Virus record (IMG/VR): IMGVR_UViG_3300010283_000228
Location: 1 to 15,333 of that record
DNA length: 15,333 nucleotides
Reading direction: 5' to 3' (one strand)
From: a virus
Taxonomy: Duplodnaviria > Heunggongvirae > Uroviricota > Caudoviricetes
Positions within the stretch are counted from its first letter, which is position 1, and every line of letters begins with the position of its first letter. Shown piece after piece: positions 274 to 15,333 of this stretch. The notes beneath the pieces are model-generated. The model was not told the origin of the DNA, did no database searches, and worked only from the letters and a program-made list of their open reading frames with translations. Both the position numbers and the translations under genes were made by a program.

Positions 274-773
274 AAATTTTCCCTTATCCCAAACTGTGCA
301 AAAATCGACTCTCTAGCACTCTTTTTCTTCGAGTCTCAACCTCACCAGCACTCAATGATGAAAGGCTGGTGGATGCCCAAGGATAACTACTAGCGTAAAG
401 TATTTTTTAATTTCGCGAGGGTACAAATTTGATGAGGCGGGCAGTCCCGGACAGCCATGGCTACAACGATTTTCCCGCCTCCTCTCCACCGACTACACTG
501 TTATGACACCAGCAGTGCTCACCTTGTGCAGAATTTCTGAACGTCAAGAATGTAGGCCATGATGATATGTGGCGATGCACCGAGTGACGCTGCACATAAT
601 GGAGATTAAATCTAATAATGTTGGTGGTGGAGATGTGAAGAAGGCGACCCGAGTGTTTGTGTGAAATGAATTGATGCCTCTACAGAAATGATTATATAGA
701 TTCAATAACTGGTTAGGTAAGAAAACTATCTGTTCTAAGGATTATGGTTTGAAAATTAAATCATGAATACATT

Positions 774-799
774 AAAAAAACCACCTCATCGAGAGGTGG
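774..799 (-). terminator. rho-independent terminator downstream of the ATPase gene
   Basis: Stem ccacctc (781-787) / gaggtgg (793-799) with loop atcga, flanked on the plus strand by a 7-nt A run (774-780), which gives a U tract after the hairpin on the minus-strand transcript. Lies 44 nt past the ATPase stop. Confidence 0.65.
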
Positions 800-842
800 T
801 TTAGGAGTAACAATAAAATTCTGTTTATAATGGCTTTCAATA

Positions 843-2048: not shown

Positions 2049-2224
2049 CTCCTTTTCATTAAAAATGATTAACCTACCACTTTCTGTTTTGCAACCGTTA
2101 CAAACTTCTTACGAGACTAAATATTTACGCATATCAAAGGAATGTTACGCACGCTCATATCCATCCCACGCTATCCCATTTTACATGAACATAAGTAAAA
2201 GCTCGCAACATCAGCATCAACAAA

Positions 2225-2243
2225 AAGCCTTACCCGTAGGCTT
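2225..2243 (-). terminator. possible weak terminator between the small ORF and the ATPase gene
   Basis: Stem aagcct (2225-2230) / aggctt (2238-2243) with loop tacccgt, followed on the minus-strand transcript by UUUUUG. Short stem, so low confidence. Confidence 0.35.
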
Positions 2244-2282
2244 AATGTTTGGCTTGGCTGTTGACTTACCGTAACGCTCCGC

Positions 2283-2462
2283 TCACCGTCGTGGCCTGTC
2301 CGGTTTCCGCCACTGATACGGCCTCACATCATCATGCTGGTGGCGTTCCTGTTGCAGCACAACGGAAACAGGCGCTGAACACCTGTTAATTTTGCTTGCT
2401 GGTTGTTTGATTTCGGCAATGCTGCGGATCATCTCCAGCATATCGGCTTCGGTGATGGTCAT
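2283..2462 (-). CDS. small hypothetical protein, 59 aa (below the ORF-track cutoff)
   Basis: Hand translation from the ATG at 2462 gives MTITEADMLEMIRSIAEIKQPASKINRCSAPVSVVLQQERHQHDDVRPYQWRKPDRPRR with TGA stop. AAGGTG lies about 7 nt upstream of the ATG. No recognisable motif. Confidence 0.3.
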   Translation of the reverse strand: MTITEADMLEMIRSIAEIKQPASKINRCSAPVSVVLQQERHQHDDVRPYQWRKPDRPRR

Positions 2463-2470
2463 GATTTACA

Positions 2471-2752
2471 CCTTAGGAAATCTTAGGGGCTGGTTGACAC
2501 TTTCCGGCTTAAGACCTTAACAAATCTTAACATCGCAGGTTGACACACTTGACACTTTTTCGCGAAAAACCTTATCAAACCTTAGCATTTCTGAGCATGG
2601 CAACTTGACACTTTTCGCGATTTTTTCGGCTTTTTGACGAGGTAAATCTGGCGCAAAGCCAGTAACGGCGGGGTTTACAGCGAGGTTGACACTTTTTCGC
2701 GTTCAGAGTGTAAAGTGTCAACCTGGCAAGCTGCTCAACTTGACACTTTTTG
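2471..2752. repeat. array of short repeats: at least six TTGACAC(T)TTTTCGCG units plus one inverted copy, interleaved with three CCTTA-N-AAATCTTA units
   Basis: TTGACAC at about 2494, 2541, 2549, 2606, 2687 and 2740; inverted GTGTCAACC at 2716-2724; CCTTAGGAAATCTTAGG at 2471, CCTTAACAAATCTTAACA at 2514, CCTTATCAAACCTTAGCA at 2570. All seen directly in the sequence. Sits immediately downstream of the wHTH gene and upstream of the 59-aa ORF and ATPase. Confidence 0.75.
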
Positions 2753-2755
2753 ATG

Positions 2756-3292
2756 TCATTGATGGTCTGATTTTTCCCATTCAGCCAGGGCGTTTAGCCC
2801 GGCTTCACTCCATGATTCCAGTTCATCGGGATAATCACCTGCAACATAGCAGAGTTCGCAACGTAGCATACGAATTGCCAGCCTGGCATTACCTCGCAAA
2901 TTGTATTTTTCAAAGTAATGCTGCCCTTCATCATCCTCAAGGCAGATAGCACCATCATCAAGAAAGAGCACTTCCCAGCCTAATTCCCCGGCTGCATACA
3001 GCACACGCTGCTGTATGTCATCGTCCGTTACTGGCGAAGGAATTTTACCGTCTCTGGCCTTAACTGCTTTCCAGAATTCGCCCCACGTCATTTCCAGCGT
3101 TCTTTCTGGCCACATTTCAGAAACGGTGTCTTTCCCTTGTGCCGGTGGGCTGTTCCGCTGCTCTGTCGCCTCCACATCAATTTTTTTGCCAGACATGATC
3201 ACTTCGCCTTTCTCGATCCAGTCGTAAACTGTCTGGCGGCTTACGCCTTTGTATTTGGCGTATTCGGCTTTACTCATCAACATGTAGCTCAC
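2756..3292 (-). CDS. winged-HTH DNA-binding protein with phage Nu1/small-terminase-like N-terminus, 178 aa (function uncertain: packaging-redirection or regulator)
   Basis: GAGGTG Shine-Dalgarno 6 nt upstream of the ATG at 3292. N-terminal KAEYAKYKGVSRQTVYDWIEKG aligns by eye with the lambda Nu1 HTH (KKQLADIFGASIRTIQNWQEQG) and also with the MerR/excisionase-type HTH. Acidic C-terminal half. Confidence 0.8.
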   Translation of the reverse strand: MSYMLMSKAEYAKYKGVSRQTVYDWIEKGEVIMSGKKIDVEATEQRNSPPAQGKDTVSEMWPERTLEMTWGEFWKAVKARDGKIPSPVTDDDIQQRVLYAAGELGWEVLFLDDGAICLEDDEGQHYFEKYNLRGNARLAIRMLRCELCYVAGDYPDELESWSEAGLNALAEWEKSDHQ

Positions 3293-3382
3293 CTCATGCG
3301 TATACGATAAAAAATAATTTCATGCGGAAAGGGAATGCGTTGTGGGTATGGAGGAAAGGGGCAATAACCGCCCCTTACTGAT

Positions 3383-3655
3383 TCAGTTGCGCCAGGATGG
3401 CTGGCTAAGCGTGGTTTTCATTACATCATTGACGACCTGTTTTACGATTTCTGTGTTGGCAGTCGTGCTTTCAACATCAACAAAGCCATAATCGCCAATT
3501 TCCACCGTCAGGGATTCCAGTTTCTTCCCTAGAGCATCAGGCAACTCTCCACTGAACCGGTGCTGAAGATTTTCCACCAGCAACGCCCTGAATGCCTCGC
3601 TGTTCTCTTTTTTCTGCCATAGCTGGCGTTTATCCACTCTGATATTTAATTTCAC
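3383..3655 (-). CDS. hypothetical protein, 90 aa, translationally coupled to the upstream 55-aa gene
   Basis: GTG start at 3655 overlaps the TGA stop of the upstream gene (GTGA), with GAGGTG about 5 nt upstream. Protein-like composition; no recognisable motif. Confidence 0.55.
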   Translation of the reverse strand: MKLNIRVDKRQLWQKKENSEAFRALLVENLQHRFSGELPDALGKKLESLTVEIGDYGFVDVESTTANTEIVKQVVNDVMKTTLSQPSWRN

Positions 3656-3819
3656 AGTCTCACCTCTTTAAGTGCCTTATCCATCAGTTGCCGGGCGATA
3701 ACATGAATCGACGGTGCCACACCAAGCACAGATTTCTGACGCTCTTCGTCCTGGATGCGTTGCAGGGCTTCGATCTGCCTCCGGGAAAGTAAAACTGGCT
3801 TTACTCCGTGATTTTTCAT
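3652..3819 (-). CDS. small putative DNA-binding protein, 55 aa (MKNHGVKPVLLSRRQIEALQRIQDEERQKSVLGVAPSIHVIARQLMDKALKEVRL)
   Basis: Internal ATG of the 107-aa track ORF, with AGAAGGGA Shine-Dalgarno 5 nt upstream. The N-terminal part of the track ORF is Cys/Asn-rich and runs through palindromic operator DNA, so it is judged non-coding. Perfect palindromes lie 20-70 bp upstream. Confidence 0.5.
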   Translation of the reverse strand: MKNHGVKPVLLSRRQIEALQRIQDEERQKSVLGVAPSIHVIARQLMDKALKEVRL

Positions 3820-3838
3820 GATGATCCCTTCTGAATGA

Positions 3839-3891
3839 CAATAATTGCAATTATTGCACAAATTGAAATGATACCAGAGACAATTGCAATA
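3839..3891. promoter_or_regulatory. operator-like palindromes upstream of the 55-aa/90-aa module
   Basis: Perfect 18-bp palindrome CAATAATTGCAATTATTG at 3839-3856 and a related AATTGCAATA at 3882-3891, just upstream of the Shine-Dalgarno of the 55-aa gene. Confidence 0.5.
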
Positions 3892-4097
3892 AATGAAACG
3901 AAAAGCATCAATAAACCAACCTTCGGCACTGAATGCTCTGATTTTTCTGCAAAGGTATGGCAGATGTTGGTGCATGCAAACATAAAGGCAATAGCAGAAG
4001 AAGCTGCGGGGAGTGAAAAGGGGAAGTTTTTATAAATACACGATTGTCGCCTCACTGCAGGTTAACAGCCACAAGCTCCATGATAATAACTTGTTAA

Positions 4098-4421
4098 TTA
4101 TTTCATCAGATTTTTCATTATTTGCGCGATTGAGTACACAAGCAAAAACTCGGCAGCCGCAAGAGTATAAAAAACATAAATTCGCTTAGCCCACCGACGA
4201 TGAAAGAACTCCTCAGCATGGCCGGATGTTCGAGATACAAGCCATGCACCTACTGCACACAGAGCAGGTGCAATGAGCACAGTTATAAACCAGATTGTGA
4301 TGCCCATCCCATGCCTACTGATAATAGCCATTGGTATTGCAAAAATGAATGTTAGAGCAGCATTAGCTAATAGAATATCTTTTAAAGTATTTTCAATTAG
4401 TTTTGCTAGATTATCTTTCAT
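4098..4421 (-). CDS. small integral membrane protein, 107 aa, three predicted hydrophobic helices
   Basis: Three hydrophobic segments of about 20 residues each (ILLANAALTFIFAIPMAIIS, ITIWFITVLIAPALCAVGAWLV, IYVFYTLAAAEFLLVYSIAQIM). TGGGGGA lies 4 nt upstream of the ATG. AT-rich. Confidence 0.65.
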   Translation of the reverse strand: MKDNLAKLIENTLKDILLANAALTFIFAIPMAIISRHGMGITIWFITVLIAPALCAVGAWLVSRTSGHAEEFFHRRWAKRIYVFYTLAAAEFLLVYSIAQIMKNLMK

Positions 4422-4451
4422 CTAATCCCCCACGTTGAACATTAATATATA

Positions 4452-4474
4452 AAAGCCCCTTACTAAGGGGCTTT
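4452..4474 (-). terminator. rho-independent terminator after the lipoprotein gene
   Basis: 10-bp perfect stem aaagcccctt (4452-4461) / aaggggcttt (4465-4474), followed on the minus-strand transcript by UAUAUAUU. Confidence 0.55.
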
Positions 4475-4485
4475 GCACGGATTGT

Positions 4486-5628
4486 TTAAAGGGAACTTTT
4501 TTTCGCCCCTTCAATTTCTGCCTGACAAATTTCGTCATTTGTAAATGAGTACTGCAGATAGACATATCCCTGAGTGGAATTGTTCGCTCTGGCCTCAATA
4601 GATATAGTATCAATATTGTTTTTTAATGGTATTTCTTTTGTTCCCTTCCATGTAGCAGATAAGAAGCGTTCTTTTTTGTTTAGCCCCCTCATCCAGTCCT
4701 GAGGATCTTTCCAAATTGAACCAGCCAGCAAAAAGTCTGTAGTATCAGCCTTTCCATACAGAGAACTTAAAGAATTACTCAATTCTTCAAACTTGGATTT
4801 AAGAGCCAATCCATAGCTATCAGTATCAATATTTTTTCCTAAAGCCCGTATTTGACATAAACCAGCTTTCGGGGAGATCAGCAAACCATACATTTCAAAA
4901 TCTGCGTTTTGCTTCGGTAATTTATCAGAAGTATACAGATTCACACTGTCTGGTAGTGGCTTGAGCTTAGCACCGATCATATCTTCGATGTTTTTCTGTG
5001 TAAGACCGGCTTCTAAGCCAAACGGACCATCCGCTGGCGGGAGTAAAGGAAGTTGCTCTTGGGAATTTTTGGCTGTTACTTCCGTTTCAGTACTGTTTTT
5101 TGCGTCATTAGCTTGTACTGATGCCAGCTTAACTTCAGCGAGGCCATACTTGGCTGTGAGGTACTTTTGCTGCAACATTGCCATGGTCTGCTCTTCAGTG
5201 GCAACAGTAGATAATTTTAGTACCTTTATCAGACCACCACTATACTGACGAGCATCAGCTTTGGCTTCGTTGATTTTTGCATCTAAGCTGTCAATTTCAG
5301 TTTTAATTGAAGCCGCAAGCTCAGGATCAGGTTTTACTCCAGATACAACAACATCAATTTTGGCACCTGATTCAATAGCATTAATACGCTGTTCCAAAAG
5401 CGCTTTATTAGTTCCTAATATTTCCAGTCTTGCTGTTGTCAGATTTTTTATCAACCCACCAGAAAACTGCTGGTCAACTTCCTTAGCTGCTGATATTTCA
5501 CCTTCCGTTTGCGACAGTTCAGCTTTAAGAGCAGCTACTTCCTGTTTCTGTTCTGGAGTTAACTCTTCTGGCCCACATCCGGTTAACATTACTATACCGA
5601 CTAATGTTGCAATTAAAGTTTTATTCAT
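4486..5628 (-). CDS. lipoprotein, 380 aa, with internally repeated SGGLIK-containing module and uncharacterised C-terminal domain
   Basis: N-terminus MNKTLIATLVGIVMLTGC is a signal peptide ending in a lipobox (LTGC). Two related segments, QQFSGGLIKNL and RQYSGGLIKVL, each sit in a charged, helix-prone context. Long protein-like ORF, AT-rich. Shine-Dalgarno is weak (AGGG 2 nt from the ATG). Confidence 0.8.
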   Translation of the reverse strand: MNKTLIATLVGIVMLTGCGPEELTPEQKQEVAALKAELSQTEGEISAAKEVDQQFSGGLIKNLTTARLEILGTNKALLEQRINAIESGAKIDVVVSGVKPDPELAASIKTEIDSLDAKINEAKADARQYSGGLIKVLKLSTVATEEQTMAMLQQKYLTAKYGLAEVKLASVQANDAKNSTETEVTAKNSQEQLPLLPPADGPFGLEAGLTQKNIEDMIGAKLKPLPDSVNLYTSDKLPKQNADFEMYGLLISPKAGLCQIRALGKNIDTDSYGLALKSKFEELSNSLSSLYGKADTTDFLLAGSIWKDPQDWMRGLNKKERFLSATWKGTKEIPLKNNIDTISIEARANNSTQGYVYLQYSFTNDEICQAEIEGAKKSSL

Positions 5629-5762
5629 ATCCCTATTCCAAATGAAAATATTCAGATTAATCTTATCAGGAACCCAGATGCAATTGAATATTCATCTGCT
5701 CAGCAACGTAGTAGATTTCCTCAGAAAGCATCAACAAAAAACCAAGAGAATCCCATCCTCTG

Positions 5763-6050
5763 TTACTGACTACAATTGTTCTTTTTTTGGTATTTCCTGA
5801 ATGCCTCACCATTGGGCTGATGTAATCCCATCCCGGCATGTGCCCGGCTGATGGTTTCGCGCATCTCCCCGAAATTATCCTGCCTTGCTGGTGGGCGTGC
5901 TGCCTTGTGGATACATTCCGCGCGACGTTTTGCCGCCTGTTCCCGTGCCTTGTCATCATTCGCCAGCATGATGACCTCAGCCCACCGCGCCGCCGCTCTC
6001 CGGTACAGACCACGCGCTTCCAGTGCTTCCGCTTTGCTGTCGTGAATCAT
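5763..6050 (-). CDS. PerC/Pch-family-like small transcriptional activator, 95 aa
   Basis: N-terminal AEALEARGLYRRAAARWAEV matches the remembered PerC/Pch signature (A..LE..GLWRRAA..W). ATG at 6050 overlaps the TGA of the upstream FinO-like gene (ATGA). Confidence 0.65.
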   Translation of the reverse strand: MIHDSKAEALEARGLYRRAAARWAEVIMLANDDKAREQAAKRRAECIHKAARPPARQDNFGEMRETISRAHAGMGLHQPNGEAFRKYQKKNNCSQ

Positions 6051-6589
6051 GCGCCTATTGTCTCCTTTGCTGCCCGGCGCTGGCGTTTGCGCTTCTCATT
6101 CAGCGCCACCAGCCGCGTTTCTGCGTCCTGTTGTTCCTGTGGTGTCACCTCGCCGCACGGCTGGCCTTTCAGGTCGTAGCGTACCCCACCAGCCATTAAG
6201 GCGCGGTAATAGCGCGGACACTGCGCATAAGATGCCAGCGTCGCACGCAATGCCCCTGGCCCGAATGCCAGCCCCCTGACGGCGAGATCCTGCATCAGGT
6301 CGTCGAATATCCCCACCTTAAGCGGCTTCAGTGCTTCCCGGCTGAATAAGTCAGGCCACAACTCAGTGAGGCGGTTAACGCGCCTGCGGTTTTTGCGCTG
6401 GCGTTTGGTCATATGCCGCCACGGTGTCGCCCCTGTAGGCTTCTGCTGCGCTTTCTGGTTACCGGGCATCACTTTATGCGCCGATGTGGTTTTATCCTGC
6501 TCCTGTGCCGCCTGCGTCGTTTTCTGCGGCGTGCCGTAAATACCTTTTGGTTTTCTGTTAATGGTCAGCTTAGTCATGCTTTGCCCCAT
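6047..6589 (-). CDS. ProQ/FinO-domain RNA-binding protein, 180 aa (alternative start at 6577)
   Basis: Segment WPDLFSREALKPLKVGIFDDLMQDL...YAQCPRYYRALMAGGVRYDLKGQPCGEVTPQEQQDAE aligns by eye with the E. coli ProQ N-terminal FinO domain ([55 protein letters not shown]). Basic N-terminal tail. Confidence 0.8.
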   Translation of the reverse strand: MGQSMTKLTINRKPKGIYGTPQKTTQAAQEQDKTTSAHKVMPGNQKAQQKPTGATPWRHMTKRQRKNRRRVNRLTELWPDLFSREALKPLKVGIFDDLMQDLAVRGLAFGPGALRATLASYAQCPRYYRALMAGGVRYDLKGQPCGEVTPQEQQDAETRLVALNEKRKRQRRAAKETIGA

Positions 6590-6595
6590 CGTTAC

Positions 6596-6933
6596 AACTG
6601 TCTACCAACTGTCTACCGATATAATTGATTGATTTATTTAATGTTATTAACACATAACAAAAAAACAATCTGCAAACTGTCTACCAACGGTCTACCGCAT
6701 TAATACATTGATAATTAATGATTTTTACTAAATGGTAGACAGTGTAGACAGTTAAAAGAGAAATTTAAAAAATGCCCCCTTAACTATCTGTTTTTTATAT
6801 ACCCCCCGTGGTTTAGGAATATAGAAATAACTGTCTACCTCTCTACCACATTGAAAATATCTTTATAATTCAAAATATTAATTGGTAGATGGTTGGTAGA
6901 GGGTTAAGTGAATCTGTCTACCAACCGTCTACC
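6596..6933. repeat. iteron array (about 12 copies of AACTGTCTACC in direct and inverted pairs) with AT-rich spacers; candidate replication origin
   Basis: Tandem direct pairs at 6596-6617, 6675-6696, 6829-6847 and 6914-6933; inverted pairs GGTAGACAGTGTAGACAG at 6734-6751 and GGTAGATGGTTGGTAGAG at 6884-6900; AT-rich stretches between. Lies immediately 3' of the primase gene. Confidence 0.75.
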
Positions 6934-6960
6934 TTTACGTTTCAGCTTATAAATTTCGTA

Positions 6961-8766
6961 TTATGTTCTGTCGTTAATCCCTGTAGCTGCTGGCAACCAG
7001 CCATCAGCATCATCATCTAACAGAACATTTGTTATCACTCGCCCTTTATCCGGGCCTTTAGTGCATTTAGCCCGCTTATACTCCTTTCCGTATTCCGCCA
7101 TAGCTCCTGGCATATCAGTACCAAAGCGTGTCAGTGATACTGGTTTTCCCAGGCCATGCGCTGACATATAGGCTAAATAAGCATGATACAGGTATCGCCT
7201 CGGGCTAAATGGCACTATTTCCGCATTGCCCACCATCATTCCTTCACATTTAACCAACGACATCAGATAGCCGCAAAAGTCCACCAGTGAATCACCTTCG
7301 CGCTTTATCAACAGCGCTTCTTCTGATTTTTGCTGCTCATAAAGTAGTCTTTTAGCTTCGTCCTGGTCGGTAAATCGTGTTAGCAAATGGCGAATCACTA
7401 CCGCCAGTTCGCCTTCTATCTTTTCCGCCAGCATGGGATCGCGTTCGTTCTCCGGTACGACCTCAGAGAAATTAAATATCACCCTACGACGCGAGATCCC
7501 CCCGCTTCGGTCACTGAATGACATGGCGTTATTGTTTACCGCAAGCACTACTGCCGGAATACGTGTGGAGTAGGGGGCTTTATGTTTCGGATCAATTGCC
7601 ACCTTGTCGCCGCCAGTAATTGCCTTAATTCCTGCACCATCGCCAGCGTAGCGAGTCATATCCGGCATGATAATCAGCGAAAAGCCAACTACTAACGCGC
7701 GTTCCCTTGCGTCTTCCAGAGCCTTCATGCTTGCCGATACTGTGTTGGCCTTACCCGCCAGCATGGTACAAATCTCAGCCATCACACTTTTACCGCTTCC
7801 GCCTGGGCCTGTTACCTCAAGGAATAACTGCCAGTCGTACCGGTTCGCCAGCACCATGAATAATGCCGCCAGTACGCGATCAGCTTTACGATCATTATCT
7901 GCCACCGAACGACGCAGCCACTTCCAGAAATTCGGCGCATGTGTTGCCAGCGTTTCCCCCTCTGCTGGTGGGCTGAACGGTAATTCACTGGCATTTAACA
8001 ACCAGTCATTTTTGTTATGCTCCCGAAAATTTCCCGTCCGGGTATCAAATACCCCGTTACTGAATCCAATAAGATTCCTGTCTGCCCCGCCCATAACAGG
8101 CAGGCTCAATTTCATTGTGTCTACGGCAAATTTAATGGCGTTTTGCGAATAACTGATTCCAGCATCAATAAAAATCTTCGCCATAGACCGCTGGAGTTCC
8201 TTATCAGATACAGGCACCCAGACAATTCCGTTGTAATGGTGAACTACATCAGAATCATCATTTATAGCCAGTGCTCTTCCATAATATTCAAGTAACACTT
8301 CCCCTCTCTGGCTGGCTCCCATCTGATTTAGTGCTGGCCTGGATAGGTCAATATTTTTTGTGGCTAATTTCATCGCTGAAACTTCCCCACTCTCTGCCTG
8401 TTCGCGGATCCGTTGCAGGTAGTCGCGCCAGTTTTCCGGCTCCCGGTCGGTGATACCTTTGTATAATTTCGCGTCCTGTACACCAGCCAGCGCCAGCTTT
8501 TCAGCAATAGCATTGATCTGGATTGGCTCTATCTCCCCCGCGAGATAGACACGTGCAAAGCGGCGTTTCTCGTCAATAATGCGGATATTCGCCAGGTCTG
8601 CCAGTTGCTTTGGCCCCAGATAAACAGGTGGCACGTTATCGCCGTGTTTTCGTCCTTCGCTTTCAATCCAGTGTTGAGCATGGGCGTAAGCATCCGTCCC
8701 GGCAAAAATGATTACCTCGGTGAATTTATCCTTCGGCTGATATTTTAAATTCGGTGCGTTTTTCAC
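6961..8766 (-). CDS. P4 alpha-like phage/plasmid primase-helicase (replication initiator), 601 aa
   Basis: Walker A GPGGSGKS in the C-terminal half. Overall resemblance to P4-family primase C-terminal regions is from memory of that family. GTG start at 8766 overlaps the upstream TGA, with GGGGAGG about 8 nt upstream. Confidence 0.88.
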   Translation of the reverse strand: MKNAPNLKYQPKDKFTEVIIFAGTDAYAHAQHWIESEGRKHGDNVPPVYLGPKQLADLANIRIIDEKRRFARVYLAGEIEPIQINAIAEKLALAGVQDAKLYKGITDREPENWRDYLQRIREQAESGEVSAMKLATKNIDLSRPALNQMGASQRGEVLLEYYGRALAINDDSDVVHHYNGIVWVPVSDKELQRSMAKIFIDAGISYSQNAIKFAVDTMKLSLPVMGGADRNLIGFSNGVFDTRTGNFREHNKNDWLLNASELPFSPPAEGETLATHAPNFWKWLRRSVADNDRKADRVLAALFMVLANRYDWQLFLEVTGPGGSGKSVMAEICTMLAGKANTVSASMKALEDARERALVVGFSLIIMPDMTRYAGDGAGIKAITGGDKVAIDPKHKAPYSTRIPAVVLAVNNNAMSFSDRSGGISRRRVIFNFSEVVPENERDPMLAEKIEGELAVVIRHLLTRFTDQDEAKRLLYEQQKSEEALLIKREGDSLVDFCGYLMSLVKCEGMMVGNAEIVPFSPRRYLYHAYLAYMSAHGLGKPVSLTRFGTDMPGAMAEYGKEYKRAKCTKGPDKGRVITNVLLDDDADGWLPAATGINDRT

Positions 8767-9077
8767 TTCTTACCTCCCCGCTCACGAATAATTTCACGTA
8801 CTGTCCTGATGCGTTCCGCGCCCGTGACGCTCATGATTTTGTCTATGTCGCTTAATTCTGCTGGTGGCGCTTTACTTACCAGGATGAATTCCCTTTCAAA
8901 GCGCATATGTGACGACACGCAGGGATGCGCATAACCTTTGCGGATATAGGTCACGCGAAAATCATCGACGGTTTTAATCGTTATCGTGCCGCCGTATTTA
9001 TCCCGGAAAATATCGCCGGGACGAATTTCAGGCCGAGAGAGACCGCTGACAGTAAAGCCAGAATTTTTCAGTTTCAT
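8763..9077 (-). CDS. hypothetical protein, 104 aa, coupled to the primase gene
   Basis: AGGAAA about 8 nt upstream of the ATG at 9077; stop overlaps the primase start. Protein-like basic composition. Confidence 0.6.
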   Translation of the reverse strand: MKLKNSGFTVSGLSRPEIRPGDIFRDKYGGTITIKTVDDFRVTYIRKGYAHPCVSSHMRFEREFILVSKAPPAELSDIDKIMSVTGAERIRTVREIIRERGGKK

Positions 9078-9081
9078 GGTT

Positions 9082-9282
9082 TTATTTTCCTGTCAGCAGT
9101 TCCGGTTTTATTTCTGCACGAATACAGAGTTCAGAAAAAAATTCAGGAGAACCAACAATCTCATTACTTTTCAGTCGGCGTTGTGATTTCACTTTCCCTT
9201 TATCCAGGTAAACCAGTACGCGTCCGGTGAAATCATCTGGCACATTAAGCACTACGGGTACATGCGCTTCATGATTATGCAT
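9082..9282 (-). CDS. hypothetical protein, 66 aa
   Basis: GGAGGA 8 nt upstream of the ATG; the start lies in an ATGCATAA stop/start overlap with the upstream gene. Confidence 0.55.
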   Translation of the reverse strand: MHNHEAHVPVVLNVPDDFTGRVLVYLDKGKVKSQRRLKSNEIVGSPEFFSELCIRAEIKPELLTGK

Positions 9283-9508
9283 GGCTTACATCCTCCGTGA
9301 ATTTTCTTCTGTAACGCGTCTCTGCCACATATTCCGCATAGTCCGACGCAATACTAAGAATCATTTCACCCTCTGACTTGTAGCCACTGGTATTGATAAG
9401 AAAATATGCAGCTTTCATCATGTCAGCAACGCTCAACAATGCGCCCGCTGCATCTTCCGGTGCGCCATCAAATTCCCGTTTCAGGGAATTAAAACGATCA
9501 TCACGCAT
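9275..9508 (-). CDS. hypothetical protein, 78 aa
   Basis: Chosen start is the internal ATG at 9508 (MRDDRF...), which has AGGGGGG 5 nt upstream and sits 2 nt after the upstream stop. The longer track ORF (start 9586) would overlap the upstream gene. Confidence 0.5.
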   Translation of the reverse strand: MRDDRFNSLKREFDGAPEDAAGALLSVADMMKAAYFLINTSGYKSEGEMILSIASDYAEYVAETRYRRKFTEDVSHA

Positions 9509-9510
9509 GT

Positions 9511-9867
9511 TTACCCCCCCTGAATGACCTGATAACCGCAACTGGTCAGCAATTCGATAAATTCCGGCAGTGTGCCGAAACAGCAATCATCACGCAGACG
9601 TTCGCGGGATACTTCAACGCCGTTTTCGTAGTGACTCACCATGCGTCCGGTAAAATGCAGATCATCATCGTGATGGCACGTTGACGGCTTAATCAGTCGC
9701 GCACGTTCCGCCAGTTCCAGCAATGCTTCAACGCTTCCGGCAATTGCACCATCCGGCAGGTGATAATTACTTACCACGCGTCCATTCTCCACGTTGACCA
9801 GTAGCTGCCCGGAAAATATCTCGTCAAACTGAATGCTGTTAAGGTCAGAAATTGACAGGTTATGCAT
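9511..9867 (-). CDS. hypothetical protein, 118 aa
   Basis: Start at the ATG at 9867 (MHNLSISD...), with AGGAGG 6 nt upstream and the ATGCATAA overlap with the upstream stop. Confidence 0.55.
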   Translation of the reverse strand: MHNLSISDLNSIQFDEIFSGQLLVNVENGRVVSNYHLPDGAIAGSVEALLELAERARLIKPSTCHHDDDLHFTGRMVSHYENGVEVSRERLRDDCCFGTLPEFIELLTSCGYQVIQGG

Positions 9868-10084
9868 GGTGCACCTCCTGTACATCAGCCATGATAATTT
9901 TTCCGGCCTTATCCAGTGCCTGATCGGCTTTCAGCTGCACAAATGCTAAATAATGGGAGATGCATTCTGATTCTCTGGCTGCGTGTTTATGCGCCACACC
10001 AGCGATAGCAGAAATCTCAATAAGTGAATCCATCAGCGTTTTGATAGCGTCTACCGCTGCATCAGGCCATGTTGCATTACACAT
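9860..10084 (-). CDS. hypothetical protein, 74 aa
   Basis: AGGAGGTGG upstream of the ATG at 10084; ATGTGTAA overlap with the upstream stop. Confidence 0.55.
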   Translation of the reverse strand: MCNATWPDAAVDAIKTLMDSLIEISAIAGVAHKHAARESECISHYLAFVQLKADQALDKAGKIIMADVQEVHHA

Positions 10085-10442
10085 GCTCCACCTCCTGGCG
10101 AATACGGGCAGCGAATACCATCACGCAGCCATCAGGAGATTGCTGGCGTGCTTCCTGTTCGCTGGTGGCCTCGATGTGAATCACGCGCGGTTGTGCCGTA
10201 CTCAGGGCGATAAAACGCCAGATAAAATTGTTTTCGCATTTCTGAATAAACAACGTGTTTTCTTCGCGCCCTTTCCATGTTGCCGAGATATAGCCCATGT
10301 CATTGAGCATCTCGCAGGCATCAACCAGCGTATCGGCGGCTACATGAACAGTGTTTTTACCGTCAGCCATGCAATCACGGTGCACCGCCAAGAAGGTGTA
10401 TATAAATTTAGGGTGAGTTTGGGTATGCTGTGCCCCAGCCAT
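10077..10442 (-). CDS. hypothetical protein, 121 aa (first gene of the leftward small-gene/primase operon)
   Basis: Internal ATG at 10442 with GAGGT 7 nt upstream, located just inside the divergent promoter region. It is the C-terminal in-frame part of the 512-codon track ORF. Confidence 0.45.
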   Translation of the reverse strand: MAGAQHTQTHPKFIYTFLAVHRDCMADGKNTVHVAADTLVDACEMLNDMGYISATWKGREENTLFIQKCENNFIWRFIALSTAQPRVIHIEATSEQEARQQSPDGCVMVFAARIRQEVEHV

Positions 10443-11615
10443 AATCGTTACCTCATTTAACGGTTTGGTTAGACGCCCCGCTACTGCCGCAAACAGTTCG
10501 GGGCGTTGTCGTTTATATCCTCTTACTGAGGTGTGATTTAAATTAAATTTAACTGAATCACAGGTCAAGTATTTTTTGTGATTCTTTTTTGTGTATACTG
10601 AATCACATCTTTTGTTTAGGAGAATGCACATGGCAAAAAACACTATCAACGACAAATCAAAACAGATTTCAATTCGTATCCCACATGATGCTTTTGAAGG
10701 CATGGAATCCGTAAAACTGGACGGCGAAAGCAACGCCGGATTCATAGTAACCGCCATGCGTGGTGAGATCGCCCGCCGCCAGGCAGAAGGAAGCGGAGAA
10801 AATCCCCTGGTTTCTTCGCTCAATGCACTGGCGCAGGTGGAAAAAATCGGAGTCAAAGCTGTCGAGGAGATCGGGCAGCTCGTCACCGTCGCACGTGAAG
10901 AACTCCAGCGCCGCAAGGCCAAAGAATCAGAATAATAACTATCATCGCCGTGGTGTGAGGAACTCCGGCGCATTGCTTTACAGGTACACAGAATGACCAA
11001 CAAAGAATCGACCAATACACCATCACCGGCACGGAAAAGACAGCGCAGAAAGATAACGTACGAATATGAGTCAGACAGATTCGCGCCCTGTGCGTTTATC
11101 CTTGAGAAATTCCTTAAAGAGTACAGGCGCACAAAAATGGGGTCGCATACCTGGAAAACATCGCGGCATGGCAATGTTAAAGAGCAGGAATAGCCCACCA
11201 GCAAGCCAACACACTGATCACATTGCCCACCAGCCGCAAATCTGGCATTGTTGGCGATGTGTTCAAGTGTGTAGCTTTCCCACTGGTGGCCCTCTGCGGT
11301 CGCCTTTGTTTTATCCAGAACGAAATTAGACATCAGATTGATCATCACCTTGCGACCTGACAAAATCGCATCAGTCGCGCCACCAGCAAAATTTTTTGCT
11401 TTCCGGACAGCGTGACCAACGACATTTTGCAGCAAAATATTCTGCATTTCTGGCGTGCTGTAGTAACGGTGATCAGCGCCTTCACTCTGTGCGACCACAA
11501 CGCTATAATCTGCCTCGTAGACAGTAAGCAATATGGCGCAGTAGGCTATTCGTTCACAAAGGCGCTCCGGCAACGGGGCGCTTTCTCTTTTTGTAACGGT
11601 CAGAGCGTTACACAT
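10077..11615 (-). CDS. 512-codon open frame; real translation start at 11615 but middle section probably not a genuine protein
   Basis: ATG at 11615 has GGAGGA upstream and the same ATGTGTAA stop/start overlap as the other coupled genes. The first ~140 codons look protein-like. The middle ~250 codons are Ser/Cys/Arg-rich and run antisense through the RHH gene and the AT-rich promoter region. No in-frame stop before 10077. Confidence 0.3.
   Translation of the reverse strand: MCNALTVTKRESAPLPERLCERIAYCAILLTVYEADYSVVVAQSEGADHRYYSTPEMQNILLQNVVGHAVRKAKNFAGGATDAILSGRKVMINLMSNFVLDKTKATAEGHQWESYTLEHIANNARFAAGGQCDQCVGLLVGYSCSLTLPCRDVFQVCDPIFVRLYSLRNFSRINAQGANLSDSYSYVIFLRCLFRAGDGVLVDSLLVILCTCKAMRRSSSHHGDDSYYSDSLALRRWSSSRATVTSCPISSTALTPIFSTCASALSEETRGFSPLPSAWRRAISPRMAVTMNPALLSPSSFTDSMPSKASCGIRIEICFDLSLIVFFAMCILLNKRCDSVYTKKNHKKYLTCDSVKFNLNHTSVRGYKRQRPELFAAVAGRLTKPLNEVTIMAGAQHTQTHPKFIYTFLAVHRDCMADGKNTVHVAADTLVDACEMLNDMGYISATWKGREENTLFIQKCENNFIWRFIALSTAQPRVIHIEATSEQEARQQSPDGCVMVFAARIRQEVEHV
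10533..10607. promoter_or_regulatory. divergent promoter region with two operator-like inverted repeats TGTGATT-N16-AATCACA
   Basis: TGTGATT at 10533 and 10578, AATCACA at 10556 and 10601, giving operators centred about 45 bp apart. A TATACT -10-like hexamer at 10594-10599 overlaps the second operator, upstream of the plus-strand RHH gene. Confidence 0.5.
10630..10935 (+). CDS. Arc/CopG-type ribbon-helix-helix DNA-binding protein, 101 aa (candidate island repressor)
   Basis: TAGGAGA Shine-Dalgarno 6 nt upstream of the ATG at 10630. KQISIRIPHDAFEGMESVKLDGE followed by SNAGFIVTAMRGEI fits the strand-helix-helix pattern of Arc-like repressors. Coiled-coil-like C-terminal half. Only plus-strand gene in the island, directly after the operator repeats. 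Confidence 0.55.
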   Translation: MAKNTINDKSKQISIRIPHDAFEGMESVKLDGESNAGFIVTAMRGEIARRQAEGSGENPLVSSLNALAQVEKIGVKAVEEIGQLVTVAREELQRRKAKESE

Positions 11616-12456
11616 GGCTGTTTTCCTCCATGCGACGGGCTAACCAACGCTGCGAAAGACGAATTAATTCAGCTTTCCGCTGGTGGTAGTCCAGGCCTAA
11701 CTCAATCAGCGTGATATTGCTCTGCTCAAGGTAAGAAAGGTGCTCAAGCTGCAACGTGCTCATGTGGTCGCGTGGTTCGCCTGTGATGCCGTTCGCCTGC
11801 GTCCACTGTTTTGCAGTCATGCCACCCAGCACGATACGCGCCAGCATATTGGCTTCCGTGGTGTAGTGGTGCTGGAGTGTGTTTTTACCCAGTTCAGCCC
11901 GGTACGCCTCCAGCGCGGCACACATCGGCTTAAAGTAGCTGGCAACGGAGATACGGGCTTTCAGTTCCCGGCGTAACGCTGCGGAACGCACTGGCGCTAC
12001 CTTGTGTAGCTCCTCCTCGCATTTGATGAAGTACTGACGAACGGCGCGGCCCTGTTCGGTGCGCTCGACCATCGCCAGTTCTTTCGCCATGTTCGTGGAG
12101 ATCAAATAGTCTTCACTGCGACGATCACCGCCGCGCTTTGTTGTCCAATCAAAATCAAACTGTTCAATATTTACACTTTGGTTCCCCCGTTTCGGGGAAT
12201 CAAAGTACAAATTATCTACAACTTCAAAATCCACGCCCTTTTTAAATCCGTACTCATCAATGCGTCCTTTAATCCAGGTTGTGAAATCACGCTTCACACC
12301 CAGCGCCTTATGCAACGCTCTGGCGCTAACAATATTGGTTTCACGTCCGCCAATAACGCCGGAAATAACCGGGATAATTTCGCCGAAATTTTGCAGATTC
12401 TGGTTTTCAGGCCGAACGAAGCCCTGCCCCTGTACGGGCGTTTTTCGCTGTTTCAT
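11608..12456 (-). CDS. phage antirepressor-like protein (AntA/Bro-N plus KilA-C-like regions), 282 aa
   Basis: AGGAG 5 nt upstream of the ATG at 12456. SARALHKALGVKRDFTTWIKGRI and later NMAKELAMVERTEQGRAVRQYFIKCEE resemble remembered antirepressor-domain signatures. Confidence 0.75.
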   Translation of the reverse strand: MKQRKTPVQGQGFVRPENQNLQNFGEIIPVISGVIGGRETNIVSARALHKALGVKRDFTTWIKGRIDEYGFKKGVDFEVVDNLYFDSPKRGNQSVNIEQFDFDWTTKRGGDRRSEDYLISTNMAKELAMVERTEQGRAVRQYFIKCEEELHKVAPVRSAALRRELKARISVASYFKPMCAALEAYRAELGKNTLQHHYTTEANMLARIVLGGMTAKQWTQANGITGEPRDHMSTLQLEHLSYLEQSNITLIELGLDYHQRKAELIRLSQRWLARRMEENSHV

Positions 12457-12534
12457 AAAAACTCCTGCTATCGAATTAAGTTACTTTTTATTTGCTGGTG
12501 GATAGTTGGGGCTTCTGGCCCCGTAGCCATTTAA

Positions 12535-12732
12535 TCAGGTAGCTGTTCCGCGTGATTCCGCAATACGCTGATTAATCCACTCGTCAATTTCACTCTCAAC
12601 GAAAGCAATAGCTCGCGAGCCAATTTTAACTGATGCAGGAAATTTACCTTGCCCCATAAGGCGATAAATCCATGCCTTGCTATATCCAGTTCTACGCTGA
12701 ACTTCCGTTAAACGAATAAGAGAGTTTGCCAT
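12535..12732 (-). CDS. alpA: AlpA-family prophage transcriptional regulator, 65 aa
   Basis: MANSLIRLTEVQRRTGYSKAWIYRLMGQGKFPASVKIGSRAIAFVESEIDEWI is the characteristic AlpA-type HTH. AAGGTGA 4 nt upstream of the ATG. Confidence 0.85.
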   Translation of the reverse strand: MANSLIRLTEVQRRTGYSKAWIYRLMGQGKFPASVKIGSRAIAFVESEIDEWINQRIAESRGTAT

Positions 12733-12987
12733 ATATTCACCTTGTAACGTCTATAAAGGTGTACATAGCTTGCATTAAGAAAAGTGATATTTATAGATGC
12801 TTACCATTATGAATGGCGAATACCATTTCAGTGAAATAGCTCCACCTTTTTTTAATAATGGCGTTTACTATTTTAAGTATCATGCTGACGTGAAACACGA
12901 AGAAAAATTACTGTTCTTACGATTTAATCTGCATTGGTGGTTACTTTTTTTTGAAAGGAAACCACCATTTTTCTGGAATAGCGACCA

Positions 12988-13704
12988 CTATTTAACTTTT
13001 TGTTTTTTTGGTCTTCTACCAATACGCTTCAGATGTTCAGGCCTTAAAATCAGATTCACAGCCCTAGCAACATTAGAACCCGCCCCCCTTTTTTTCAAAT
13101 ATTCAAGTACCTCATGCTCTGTCGGAGCCGTCTGTGGGTCATCTGGGTCATACGTCGACCATAGTTCTCTTATAGCATCCTGCACATACTCCAACCCATC
13201 ACTCTTATGCCCATAAGTACACAAATACTCGTCAGGATTAATTACCTGATGAGATGATTCAATGATTGCTGGCGGATTAACTTCCTTAACAGGTATAGGG
13301 CGAGGGCATCTCGCAAAATCAACGCTCTCATTTTTTATCCACTCATATAAAGAATGGCGACTAATTAAAGTTTTATCCTTGCTTATCTCATATGCACGAT
13401 CGGTCAGTTGCGCTGATGTCAGACGTTTGTACTCAATATCACAAACATTTCCCCAATTATCGTATTCAACTATTTCAGAGGTACATTCAACAGGAGTTAA
13501 GACACCACGACGGATGGCTGTTACCATTCCATTAGCCAACCCCCATGCCATTTTCCAACGTTCATGTTTATTATCTCTGACATGTTCAAGAGTAGGGTAA
13601 TCATAAGGATCAATTCCGGCCAACAATAAAGCGGCCTGGGTGATAGAAAACTCCTGTACTGTTCGCCAGTGGGATAAGTCAGGAATGTTTTCCACAATTG
13701 GCAT
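12988..13704 (-). CDS. hypothetical protein, 238 aa, in the variable slot between integrase and alpA
   Basis: Chosen start is the ATG at 13704 (MPIVENI...) with AAGGGGGAG 5 nt upstream; the track start at 13719 is a TTG. Basic C-terminal tail RIGRRPKKQKVK. No recognisable motif. Confidence 0.7.
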   Translation of the reverse strand: MPIVENIPDLSHWRTVQEFSITQAALLLAGIDPYDYPTLEHVRDNKHERWKMAWGLANGMVTAIRRGVLTPVECTSEIVEYDNWGNVCDIEYKRLTSAQLTDRAYEISKDKTLISRHSLYEWIKNESVDFARCPRPIPVKEVNPPAIIESSHQVINPDEYLCTYGHKSDGLEYVQDAIRELWSTYDPDDPQTAPTEHEVLEYLKKRGAGSNVARAVNLILRPEHLKRIGRRPKKQKVK

Positions 13705-13802
13705 ATTCTCCCCCTTCAAGCGGTCTAATGTTAAGGCCGAGCCAGCTCTGTTTGCATCAGCCTTTTTAGGTGCTCAAAGTCTACTACTGTATACTCAACC
13801 AG

Positions 13803-15017
13803 TCACCCGCATTTTCCGAACTCACCATGCACCACATTTCCGCCATGCTCGAGCGAATCCATATAGTCGGCATACCACTGGAGCATCTCCCGGCGACCAT
13901 CCAGATATTGCGCATGGTTGTATGTGCCACGAATTGAGTTTTTATCGACGTGTGCGAGCTGTGTCTCTATCCACGCGGTGTTATAGCCCTGCTCATGCAA
14001 AATGGTGCTCATGGTGTGCCGGAATCCATGACCAGTAACCTTTCCGTTATAGCCGATGCGTTTAAATACTTGGTTTATGCTAGCCTCGCTCATTGTTTTC
14101 CTTGGATCATTACGGCCGGGAAACATAAGCGGATAATTGCCAGTTAATTCTTTAATCTGCCCAATAAGCGAAAGAGCCTGCTTAGACAAAGGCACCACAT
14201 GAGGGCGACGCATTTTCATCCGTGAAGCAGGTATCTCCCAGATAGCCTTGTTGAGATCGATTTCATCCCATAATGCACCGCGCAGTTCGCCAGTCCGCAA
14301 ACCGGTGATAATCAGTAGACGAGCCGCCATAACAACCAATGCACTTCCTGAGTAACTGGACAATGCCTTGAAAAAATCAGGTAATTCTTTGGCTGTGAGG
14401 AAAGGATAATGATTAGATTCATGACCTTGCATCGCGCTGGTGAGATCCGGTGCAGGGTTATACTCAGCACGTCCAGTGACAATTGCATAGCGGAAAACCT
14501 CCCCGCATCGCTGCCTCACTTTTTTGGCTTTTTCGGTAGCACCGCGCCCCTCGATGCGCCGCAGCACATTCAGCAGTTCAAGTGGTTTGATTTCGGCGAT
14601 TGGTTTTTTGCCAATGTAAGGGAACACATCTTTGTTGAAGGCTTCGAGGATGTCTGAAGCATAACCAGCAGACCATTTTTTTAATTTGCTGCTGTGCCAC
14701 TCAAGGGCAATATCTTTGAAGGTGTTGTTTAACTGCGTTTCCCGGGCAATCTTTTCCTCTCGTTTCGCTTCCATCGGATCGATACCCCCAGCGATACCCC
14801 TTTTAGCTTCTTCACGTTTTGCACGAGCATCAGCCAAGGTAACTTCAGGATACACACCTAGTGCTAACAGCTTCTCTTTACCAGCTACACGATACTTGAA
14901 GCGCCAATATTTTCCTCCACTAGGTTTTACCAAGAGATACAGACCGCCACCATCAGCCAGCTTGTAAGCCTTCTCTTTTGGCTTGGCAGTGTCTATTTGA
15001 CGGGCATTGAGTTTCAC
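13803..15017 (-). CDS. int: P4-family tyrosine integrase, 404 aa
   Basis: N-terminus KPKEKAYKLADGGGLYLLVKPSGGKYWRFKYR is the hallmark of P4-type integrases. Catalytic-region motifs TGLRTGELRG, HGFRHT and RGTYNHAQY are present. GTG start with GGAGG 9 nt upstream. Located 166 bp from the 3' end of the tRNA. Confidence 0.9.
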   Translation of the reverse strand: MKLNARQIDTAKPKEKAYKLADGGGLYLLVKPSGGKYWRFKYRVAGKEKLLALGVYPEVTLADARAKREEAKRGIAGGIDPMEAKREEKIARETQLNNTFKDIALEWHSSKLKKWSAGYASDILEAFNKDVFPYIGKKPIAEIKPLELLNVLRRIEGRGATEKAKKVRQRCGEVFRYAIVTGRAEYNPAPDLTSAMQGHESNHYPFLTAKELPDFFKALSSYSGSALVVMAARLLIITGLRTGELRGALWDEIDLNKAIWEIPASRMKMRRPHVVPLSKQALSLIGQIKELTGNYPLMFPGRNDPRKTMSEASINQVFKRIGYNGKVTGHGFRHTMSTILHEQGYNTAWIETQLAHVDKNSIRGTYNHAQYLDGRREMLQWYADYMDSLEHGGNVVHGEFGKCG

Positions 15018-15048
15018 TTGGGGGTACCTCCACTAAACCGAACAGCAA

Positions 15049-15071
15049 ATACCCCCAAAAGTACCCCCAAT
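15049..15071. repeat. 23-bp direct repeat ATACCCCCAAAAGTACCCCCAAT, copy 2, with nearby inverted GTACCCCCAA-like copies; candidate integrase arm sites
   Basis: Identical to 251-273. Inverted partial copies TTGGGGGTAC at 15018-15027 and TTTTGGGGTAC at 15082-15092 flank it, between the integrase start codon and the tRNA. Confidence 0.6.
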
Positions 15072-15183
15072 TGACTGTAGATTTTGGGGTACTTAAGTAG
15101 ACGTCAAAAGACTAAAAGGGGCATTAATATACTGATTATAAGAGGTTTTTAAATACTTTAGTAGACTTGGGGAGACGTTAGAA

Positions 15184-15259
15184 TGGTGCCGATAAGAGGA
15201 GTCGAACCTCCGACCTTCGCATTACGAATGCGCTGCTCTACCAACTGAGCTATATCGGC
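15184..15259 (-). tRNA. thrW: tRNA-Thr (anticodon CGU)
   Basis: Reverse complement reads GCCGATATAGCTCAGTTGGTAGAGCAGCGCATTCGTAATGCGAAGGTCGGAGGTTCGACTCCTCTTATCGGCACCA: 7-bp acceptor stem, D arm, anticodon loop TTCGTAA (anticodon CGT), T arm GGAGG/TTCGACT/CCTCT, 3' CCA. The thrW symbol is assigned because CGU is the thrW anticodon in E. coli. Confidence 0.9.
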
Positions 15260-15333
15260 CCTGAAAGGACATGTTCACGAACGTGAATCACGGTGGACAA
15301 GGTTAAAACTAACCGGGCGATGCGTCAATGGCC

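Follow-up and report, generated by a model that had tools for sequence, protein, structure and literature searches.

The DNA analyzed here, referred to as the window, is a stretch of 15,333 nucleotides that makes up positions 1 to 15,333 of the IMG/VR virus record IMGVR_UViG_3300010283_000228. Judged from its gene content, the window is a Gram-negative phage-inducible chromosomal island (PICI) of the EcCICFT073/P4 lineage, located beside tRNA-Thr. The identifying markers are an integrase, AlpA, AntA, an Icd-like domain, DUF4222, a D5-type primase, PerC and ProQ. On the minus strand, the order is integrase, a 243-amino-acid open reading frame (ORF), alpA, an antA/antB gene, a frame of 512 codons ending in the Icd-like domain, four small genes here called D, E, F and G, DUF4222, the D5-type primase gene, ProQ/FinO and PerC. 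An integrase, an AlpA-type regulator and a primase/replication module thus follow each other in the conserved order of PICIs, which are elements of approximately 12–15 kb, and virion and lysis genes were absent from the two sequences inspected, the 15.3-kb window and the related island L001. The tRNA-Thr gene of the window lies at 15187–15259 (Rfam), and the closest relatives adjoin tRNA-Thr and proA. The same operon occurs in the island of strain CFT073, and the stretch from the Icd-like gene to DUF4222 was matched in 1,897 of 5,426 complete E. coli genomes. A phage identity was rejected for the element, as the operon DNA gave only three short matches against 50,697 phage records. Transcription of PICIs is one-directional and switched on by AlpA, an activator of PICI genes (Fillol-Salom et al. 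2018, PMC6092414). Known PICIs are induced and packaged by helper phages, and by analogy this may also apply to the island studied here.

The genes from alpA to the primase form a chain on the minus strand, which is also the strand of all features below unless stated otherwise. The first gene of this rightward transcription unit is alpA (12535..12732), which encodes an AlpA-family activator/excisionase (Pfam Phage_AlpA, 2.4e-19) and is called a helix-turn-helix regulator by the Prokaryotic Genome Annotation Pipeline (PGAP) in L001. It is followed by an antA/antB-type (Bro-network) gene of 282 amino acids (11608..12456; Pfam AntA, 7.8e-24; PHROG anti-repressor families; also annotated by PGAP in L001), the 512-codon frame (10077..11615), gene D (74 amino acids, 9860..10084), gene E (118 amino acids, 9511..9867), gene F (77 amino acids, 9275..9508) and gene G (66 amino acids, 9082..9282). 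The DUF4222 gene (8763..9077; Pfam DUF4222, 2.1e-18) starts 4 nt past the stop of G, and the chain is closed by a primase/helicase gene (6961..8766; D5_N, DUF5906, Pox_D5) whose product is 49% identical to the P4 alpha protein over 453 amino acids. Nowhere in this chain of approximately 5.5 kb is there an untranslated gap of more than 4 nt.

Four junctions in the chain have the same design. The pattern CATGYRTAA is matched exactly four times in the window, each time on the minus strand (9275–9283, 9860–9868, 10077–10085 and 11608–11616), and at each of them the stop of the upstream gene and the start of the downstream gene overlap by 8 nt. At junction J1 (11608..11629), which is also found in L001, L002, L029 and L030, a GGAGG at 11625–11629 is followed after a 9-nt spacer by ATGTGTAA at 11608–11615. 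The junction reads GGAGGAAAACAGCC-ATG-TGT-AA, so that AntA ends in S-H-V-stop inside J1 and the following ORF begins with M-C-N. Junction J2 (10077..10095) carries CAGGAGGTG, with GGAGG at 10091–10095, a 6-nt spacer and again ATGTGTAA at 10077–10084, and reads CAGGAGGTGGAGC-ATG-TGT-AA (E-H-V-stop and M-C-N). J3 (9860..9878) has the same CAGGAGGTG, with GGAGG at 9874–9878, a 6-nt spacer and ATGCATAA at 9860–9867, and reads CAGGAGGTGCACC-ATG-CAT-AA (H-H-A-stop and M-H-N). J4 (9275..9296) has GGAGG at 9292–9296, a 9-nt spacer and ATGCATAA at 9275–9282, and reads GGAGGATGTAAGCC-ATG-CAT-AA (S-H-A-stop and M-H-N). The four shared overlaps described in the first-pass annotation, with upstream genes ending in H-V/A-stop and downstream genes starting with M-C/H-N, are thus present, whereas the distance of 4–8 nt that it gave between GGAGG and the start codon needs correction to 9, 6, 6 and 9 nt for J1 to J4.

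In shuffled versions of the window, CATGYRTAA occurred 0.65 times on average and none of 200 shuffles reached four matches, a significance that is overstated since the pattern was chosen post hoc. The bare pattern ATGNNTRA was not enriched in the window (21 found, 23 expected), so the unusual feature is that the matches are placed exactly at the ends and starts of minus-strand ORFs. The lack of enrichment would fit the explanation that the overlaps are a matter of chance or of annotation, created by wrongly chosen start codons. We find this explanation hardly credible: besides the shuffled sequences, the agreement between PGAP and an independent caller speaks against it, no alternative start with a Shine-Dalgarno sequence (SD) is found near the junction starts, and the N-termini are conserved across genera.

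A fifth such junction, J5, is latent between E and F (9501..9520). Here a run of seven G residues at 9514–9520 serves as the SD and is followed by ATGCGTGA at 9501–9508. One extra G in the window puts the stop of E at the TAA at 9511–9513, 2 nt before the start of F, and the same G7 run and 2-nt gap are found in L029 and in strain ABU 83972. With G6, as in L001 (99% identical), where PGAP ends E at this position and E has 121 amino acids, or with G9, as in L002, the overlap is 8 nt. Including J5, the seven same-strand junctions from antA to the primase consist of four 8-nt overlaps, the latent 8-nt overlap (2-nt gap here), one 4-nt gap and one 4-nt overlap, the last being the GTGA (8763–8766) between DUF4222 and the primase; all lie within the range of −8 to +6. 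For four overlaps of 8 nt (−8) among seven junctions we obtain P ~1e-5, with an approximate background of ~2.5% that derives from 62 of 2,511 gene pairs in H. volcanii (PMC10666635), not from E. coli. The G run before F varies from G6 to G9 among strains (window, L001, L002, L027, L029, L033, L035 and L043), and with its length the joint changes from an overlap of 8 nt to a gap of 2 nt, an overlap of 28 nt or an in-frame fusion of D and F. At the joint of D and F in other islands, G7 gives a fused gene of 154 amino acids, G8 gives two genes with an 8-nt overlap and G9 gives a 28-nt overlap.

Related islands were surveyed in two sets. The E. coli set consists of 21 PGAP-annotated islands with 101 junctions, and the set from other genera consists of 22 loci found via the primase, 20 of which yielded junctions (89 in total), including loci from Raoultella, Kluyvera, Klebsiella, Enterobacter, Serratia, Rahnella, Pantoea and Erwinia. 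With a simple chain caller, the PGAP junctions were recovered in nearly all annotated loci. The −8 class was the commonest in both sets, with 34 junctions in E. coli (24 of −4 and 13 of −11) and 31 in the other genera (29 of −4 and 6 of −11). A single conserved joint between DUF4222 and the replication gene accounts for 21 of the 24 E. coli junctions of −4. When counted as distinct pairs of upstream and downstream families (n = 65), 27 pairs were joined by −8, 14 by −4 and 5 by −11. The 54 distinct −8 junctions gave the consensus AGGRGGTG c r y C ATG C R T R A, in which the SD occupies positions −12 to −5. The comparison of related islands proposed in the first-pass annotation thus came out as anticipated there, with genes that vary between junctions of fixed design; the alternative that relatives lack the motif did not hold, as it is family-wide.

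In genomes, the overlap of 4 nt is by far the commonest, followed by −1 and then −8 (PMC12548453; PMC10666635), an order that also applies to E. coli (PMC10666635); overlaps of 4 nt make up approximately 45% of the total and those of 1 nt 15% (PMC3887535). Spacing of −8 is a recognized coupling class inside the range that predicts termination-reinitiation (PMC12548453; PMC10666635). The junctions resemble the known termination-reinitiation pairs of −4, −1 and −8 in that the ORFs are co-directional, the SD lies inside the upstream gene and the stop is at most 8 nt from the start. They differ from the usual coupled pairs, which in genomes are dominated by −4, in that −8 is the commonest class, the shared consensus is extended and four to five such joints occur in succession. 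A long run of small early genes with overlapping stops and starts, in a mosaic region of a temperate element, is also seen in lambda (O, P, ren, ninB–ninI and Q), but the chain from O to Q uses ATGA (−4) at 7 of 11 joints and −8 at none. The replication/nin region of lambda is said to have been described as consisting of 'interlinked genes' by Kroger and Hobom in 1982. Since genomes favor −4 and the lambda O-to-Q chain has no −8, the preference for −8 is a property of the P4/PICI early-operon family, of which it is the commonest junction class.

The longest link of the chain is the frame between J1 and J2, which according to the ORF list runs for 512 codons from the antA stop to the Icd-like stop. 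A kil/Icd-like domain is found only at its end, at approximately 10092–10223 (NF033153 at amino acids 464–507; phrog_1743), and an internal start in the same frame, with an SD of its own, is located at 10442. The exact 512-amino-acid protein is present in public databases under the name Icd-like protein, which is also carried by more than 1,500 relatives. The frame runs antisense through two plus-strand terminators (11285–11304 and 11559–11584), a 66-amino-acid gene, a ylcI/ynfO-family gene and a divergent promoter region, and nevertheless contains no stop in any of five segments, as compared to 1–9 stops in the other five frames, with the exception of one plus-strand frame that is likewise stop-free in 10224–10442. 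In most loci of all genera, the frame that leads to the Icd-like stop contains 290–547 open codons, with 0–2 stops per 900 nt versus 12–26 in most counts of other frames, and in loci where it is broken a second long frame carries on upstream. The first 140 codons after J1 are open and show no constraint at the protein level: substitutions by codon position were 17/11/14 and 24/14/13, and amino-acid identity in this frame did not exceed that in the others. Constraint is clear in the Icd-like part. That a long frame is kept open although its first part shows no protein constraint points to selection for continuous translation. PGAP is inconsistent on the long frame in related loci (L036 2232–3644; L030 2133–2801; L026, L027, L028, L035 and L039), where it calls an Icd-like protein of 470 or 222 amino acids, a protein of 65–73 amino acids, or fragments of 'incomplete' pseudogenes under the names hypothetical protein or Icd-like (in L044 ash-family and in L041 BRO-N).

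On the opposite strand, the ylcI/ynfO-family gene (10630–10935, plus strand; NF041551, 5e-18) and the 66-amino-acid gene (10993–11193, plus strand) together span 10630..11193, match phrog_6522 and phrog_21027 and are annotated by PGAP. The terminators at 11559–11584 and 11285–11304 probably end the ylcI transcription unit, which converges on alpA and antA. Two blocks in this region, 11536–11592 and 11213–11259, are 91–97% conserved in many islands that otherwise differ here, and the first of them holds the strong intrinsic plus-strand terminator at 11559–11584. The divergent region between ylcI and the kil-like start contains two operator-like inverted repeats, TGTGATT...AATCACA (10527–10538/10556–10567 and 10577–10584/10600–10607), and two copies, 45 nt apart, of the direct repeat ACTGAATCACA. 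A perfect 8-bp hairpin (10473–10480/10499–10506) is located directly upstream of the kil-like SD.

The organization of the chain invites comparison with the left (alpha) operon of phage P4, which consists of vis/orf88, the nested eta/kil genes, epsilon, orf151, orf106 and alpha. Both have homologous primases and an AlpA homologue, and both contain a long frame in which a short kil-like gene is nested. Most of the surveyed loci have a long ORF, beginning directly behind the alpA homologue or behind the gene next to it, whose 3' end contains a short kil/Icd-like gene in the same frame. The junction design recurs as well: in the P4 record (L046), kil/eta and epsilon overlap by 8 nt at 7888–7895 in ggaggtgtcccGTGcgtaa (ggaggtgtccc-GTG-CGT-AA), and epsilon and orf151 overlap by 8 nt at 8168–8175 in cgCATGtttga, with epsilon ending in T-H-V-stop. 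The P4 ORF named 'cI' (137 amino acids, with an ATT start in the reference record) matches NF033153 at residues 85–132 and phrog_1743, as does the Icd-like gene of the window. By these matches, the ORF annotated as 'cI' is the C-terminal part of the nested eta/kil genes. As far as the summary of Forti et al. 1999 given by Mageeney et al. (PMC10111431) goes, Kil is a truncated Eta, the upstream late promoter is the only one from which Eta is translated in full, and translation of eta prevents transcription termination in P4, where this role of translation is established. We read the 512-codon frame, by analogy, as the likely eta/kil equivalent of the island, kept open so as to be translated.

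The window also differs from P4. Its small genes between kil and the primase belong to other families, as epsilon, orf151 and orf106 of P4 match other PHROGs. Its long frame has 512 codons and runs antisense through the ylcI-family gene and its terminators, and the island lacks sid, delta and psu and has a PICI organization instead. No C4/isrK-type immunity RNA was detected with Rfam, neither in the whole window at the gathering threshold nor in 10380–11700 at E<=10, where tRNA-Thr was the sole match; in place of the CI/C4 immunity RNA and seqA target of P4, this region has the ylcI-family gene with its operator-like repeats. The P1 immI operon (c4 RNA, icd, ant) is likewise headed by an Icd-type cell-division inhibitor gene, and expression of icd has been reported to be required for the downstream gene (PMC8201110). 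Unlike P1 immI, the window has no C4 match, and its antirepressor-type gene is upstream rather than downstream of the Icd-like gene. The resemblance to EcCICFT073 (PMC6092414) covers the order of int, alpA, a variable zone and the primase, PerC, integration on the tRNA side and AlpA-activated unidirectional transcription, and the CFT073 island has a −4/−11/−8 chain. The present island differs from it in carrying antA and other small cassettes (Icd-D-E-F-G). The design of the junctions is clear and conceptually familiar, but within the literature searched it has previously been described neither for PICIs nor for the P4/PICI early operon.

In the anatomy of the junctions, the SD (AGGRGGTG) lies in frame within the last codons of the upstream gene, where it is usually translated as Glu-Val. 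The ATG follows 4 nt past GGTG, or 7 nt past the shorter GGAGGA form found at J1 and J4, and the upstream stop codon occupies positions +6 to +8 of the downstream gene. Folds of 75-nt RNA stretches at all seven junctions were no more stable than those of shuffled sequences (z from −1.3 to +0.9), although the palindromic CATG forms part of some small hairpins; the idea that local structure hides the SD or AUG was accordingly not supported. On the minus strand along the chain, a weak 5-bp candidate at 10795–10807 was the only intrinsic terminator detected. Programmed frameshifting in prfB is characterized by a stop that is preceded by a slippery P-site codon and, approximately 3 nt upstream, by an SD. 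A prfB-type +1 frameshift at the stop was rejected for the junctions, as the last sense codons GTG and GCA cannot re-pair in +1 and the SD is 8–11 nt upstream.

The reading that we consider probable is that the junctions are standard joints of an early operon, which act as a relay of terminating and reinitiating ribosomes that keeps the transcript from alpA to the primase translated, and which also form the boundaries of gene cassettes; the coupling itself is what we infer. A ribosome terminating at a UAA or UGA five bases past the AUG would remain paired to the SD. The SD would then be 8 nt from the P site, as compared to 6 nt for a ribosome placed on the AUG, and a backward shift of 2 nt would suffice for re-initiation. 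With termination-reinitiation of the known −8 class at every joint, the 5.5-kb RNA from alpA to the primase would be continuously translated and could thereby be shielded from premature termination, probably Rho-dependent, which is the role established for eta in P4. The strict translational coupling suggested in the first-pass annotation would fit both the anatomy of the junctions and what is known of P4 eta.

Several points weigh against this reading. The SDs are very strong and structurally unmasked, so de novo initiation at each gene may be substantial and coupling only partial. Junctions of −8 re-initiate less efficiently than shorter overlaps (PMC10666635), and efficiency therefore does not explain why −8 is preferred. 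The C at −1 (43 of the 54 distinct −8 junctions) and the C at +4 (39 of 54) are conserved although unneeded for the SD, the start, the stop or coupling; because of them, most upstream proteins end in His-Ala or His-Val and most downstream proteins start with Met-His or Met-Arg. Finally, the junction counts of the survey are not fully independent, because many of the islands share ancestry.

The first of these points leads to the explanation that the genes are merely compacted and initiate independently, with overlaps that save space, strong SDs that recruit free 30S subunits and no handover of ribosomes; the 8 nt would be an accident of GGAGGTG being tolerated as Glu-Val. The SDs match the anti-SD over 7–8 nt and are not sequestered in significant structure, and the GAG-GTG frame with a 4-nt spacer automatically yields a phase of −8, −11 or −14. 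Of five E. coli pairs tested, one initiated de novo (PMC6728339). However, the first stop in the upstream frame is nearly always within 8–14 nt of the ATG, whereas random sequence would give much longer overlaps, and over its 5.5 kb the chain nowhere shows a gap larger than 4 nt. Independent initiation also leaves unexplained that the frame of 290–547 codons is open in most loci of all genera in spite of its unconstrained part after J1, and it has the precedent of P4 against it. Considering both sides, we regard independent initiation as unlikely. The GAG-GTG reading of the SD and the 4-nt spacer do fix the phase at −8, −11 or −14, which may be why this phase, once established, persists through the exchange of cassettes.

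The small genes were compared with each other and with their relatives, since the first-pass annotation had described a chain of unrelated small ORFs. Each of D to G belongs to a PHROG family (D to phrog_5146, F to phrog_24341, E and G to phrog_340), and PGAP annotates the junction genes in relatives. Against homologues of the same length, substitutions at codon positions 1, 2 and 3 were 13/19/34 for D, 36/31/80 for F and 30/26/53 for G, and by this test D, F and G behave as coding genes. The paralogues E and G share 36% identity, and E consists of two tandem G-like units, as residues 1–61 and 61–107 of E each align to the 66 amino acids of G, indicating an internal tandem duplication. Inheritance thus accounts in part for the fact that J3 and J4 share ATGCATAA and M-H-N. 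In phrog_2512, one half is matched by D and the other by F, and in three islands the two form a single D+F gene of 154 amino acids, with D as the N-terminal and F as the C-terminal half. In contrast, BLASTP gave no similarity between D and F, between D and E, or between D and the first 140 amino acids after J1, and these pairs of junctions are thus not explained by paralogy. The description as unrelated holds for the latter comparisons; it does not hold for E and G or for the two halves of the D+F gene, and the ORF after J1 is with its 512 codons not small.

These relationships bear on the possibility that the motif is explained by descent alone, that is, by tandem duplication of one two-gene cassette that left the junction as an inherited relic without present function. 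The paralogy of E and G with their shared ATGCATAA and M-H-N, the internal duplication of E, the occurrence of D and F as neighbors or as one gene elsewhere, and the conservation of C at −1 and +4 past functional need would all agree with it. Against it, the design joins at least 27 family pairs, including the unrelated AntA, the Icd-like domain, genes on the DUF4222 side and epsilon and orf151 of P4, and it is kept in at least 10 genera in which the flanks have diverged beyond alignment; the failure of the ORF after J1 and D, D and F, and D and E to show similarity adds to this. We consider descent alone quite improbable.

The junctions behave as borders of exchangeable modules. Different modules are bordered by one and the same short sequence, at which homology blocks come to an end. 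At the position of J2, at least 12 different families occur downstream of the conserved Icd-like 3' end (cgtattcgYcaggRggtg), and in other islands the 3' end of F (J4) precedes two different downstream genes. Of the internal ends of BLAST homology blocks, 62% were located within −20 to +10 of a start codon of the chain, as compared to 11% for uniform placement (maximum 18% in 200 trials). In one related island, L030, which corresponds to the window minus gene D, the flanks have 97% and 93% identity, and the Icd-like end passes straight into E within the CAGGAGGTG common to J2 and J3. Modular exchange at a conserved junction, the other suggestion of the first-pass annotation, thus gained direct comparative support, with block ends piled up at the junctions. 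The sequences suggest that the junctions mark modularity, and L030 is consistent, as one exact case, with recombination in the linker. A further point to be held against our reading of the junctions as cassette boundaries is that selection acting on random recombinants would likewise place block ends at the borders of genes. As such selection leaves the same break points, the data show modularity at the junctions and not that recombination starts there.

It could also be argued that the junctions are recombination linkers only, the ~20-nt sequence being mainly a patch of homology for the exchange of modules, as proposed for some lambdoid phages, with its effect on translation incidental. The clustering of block ends and the exact D-cassette difference, which falls between two copies of CAGGAGGTG, agree with this, and modules are known to be exchanged by way of short conserved flanks (PMC2327257). 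Nearly all conserved positions are nevertheless part of the SD, the ATG or the stop, with only two extra, stretches of 9–13 nt are short for homologous recombination, and selection on random joints would also leave break points at gene borders. Linkers without a role in translation are in our judgment very improbable.

The ribosome relay and the cassette boundaries may be two aspects of the same joint. The SD block is locked in frame to the stop as well as to the ATG. A small gene could therefore be added, removed or swapped through recombination or slippage within the block while both frames and the relay stay intact, so that the same joint would come to flank many different genes in related islands. 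In its widest form, this idea holds that the frame-locked joint CAG-GAG-GTG-NNN-CAT-GNN-TAA is the standardized cassette linker of the whole P4/PICI lineage. Each cassette would supply the stop for its predecessor and the SD for its successor, swaps would proceed by recombination or slippage in the SD block of 9–13 nt, and the relay with its protection against Rho would start at alpA, cross a 'bridge' ORF of unconstrained sequence and reach the primase without interruption, in a natural plug-and-play standard for polycistrons. We put this forward tentatively, as a generalization that is possible but rather doubtful.

Outside the chain, the far end of the island carries a gene for a STAND-type NTPase of 401 amino acids (nSTAND1, AAA; 843–2048). 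In L001, the 99%-identical operon is followed by a GapS1 gene instead (L001 1–964). By its gene content, this far end is probably a variable slot for anti-phage cargo.

Gram-negative PICIs and their P4-type relatives are very common and carry defense and virulence cargo. The principle of coupling is already known for P4 and for overlapping genes generally, and the gain here is descriptive rather than conceptual. The fixed, frame-locked joint provides a simple rule by which the true starts of tiny satellite genes can be located, and it is a natural template for tightly coupled synthetic operons. Should the junctions work as a ribosome relay, the head of the transcript would be the point at which expression of the replication module is gated, and a single translational block upstream would silence the whole operon. 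This would help to explain why the satellites remain silent until a helper phage arrives.

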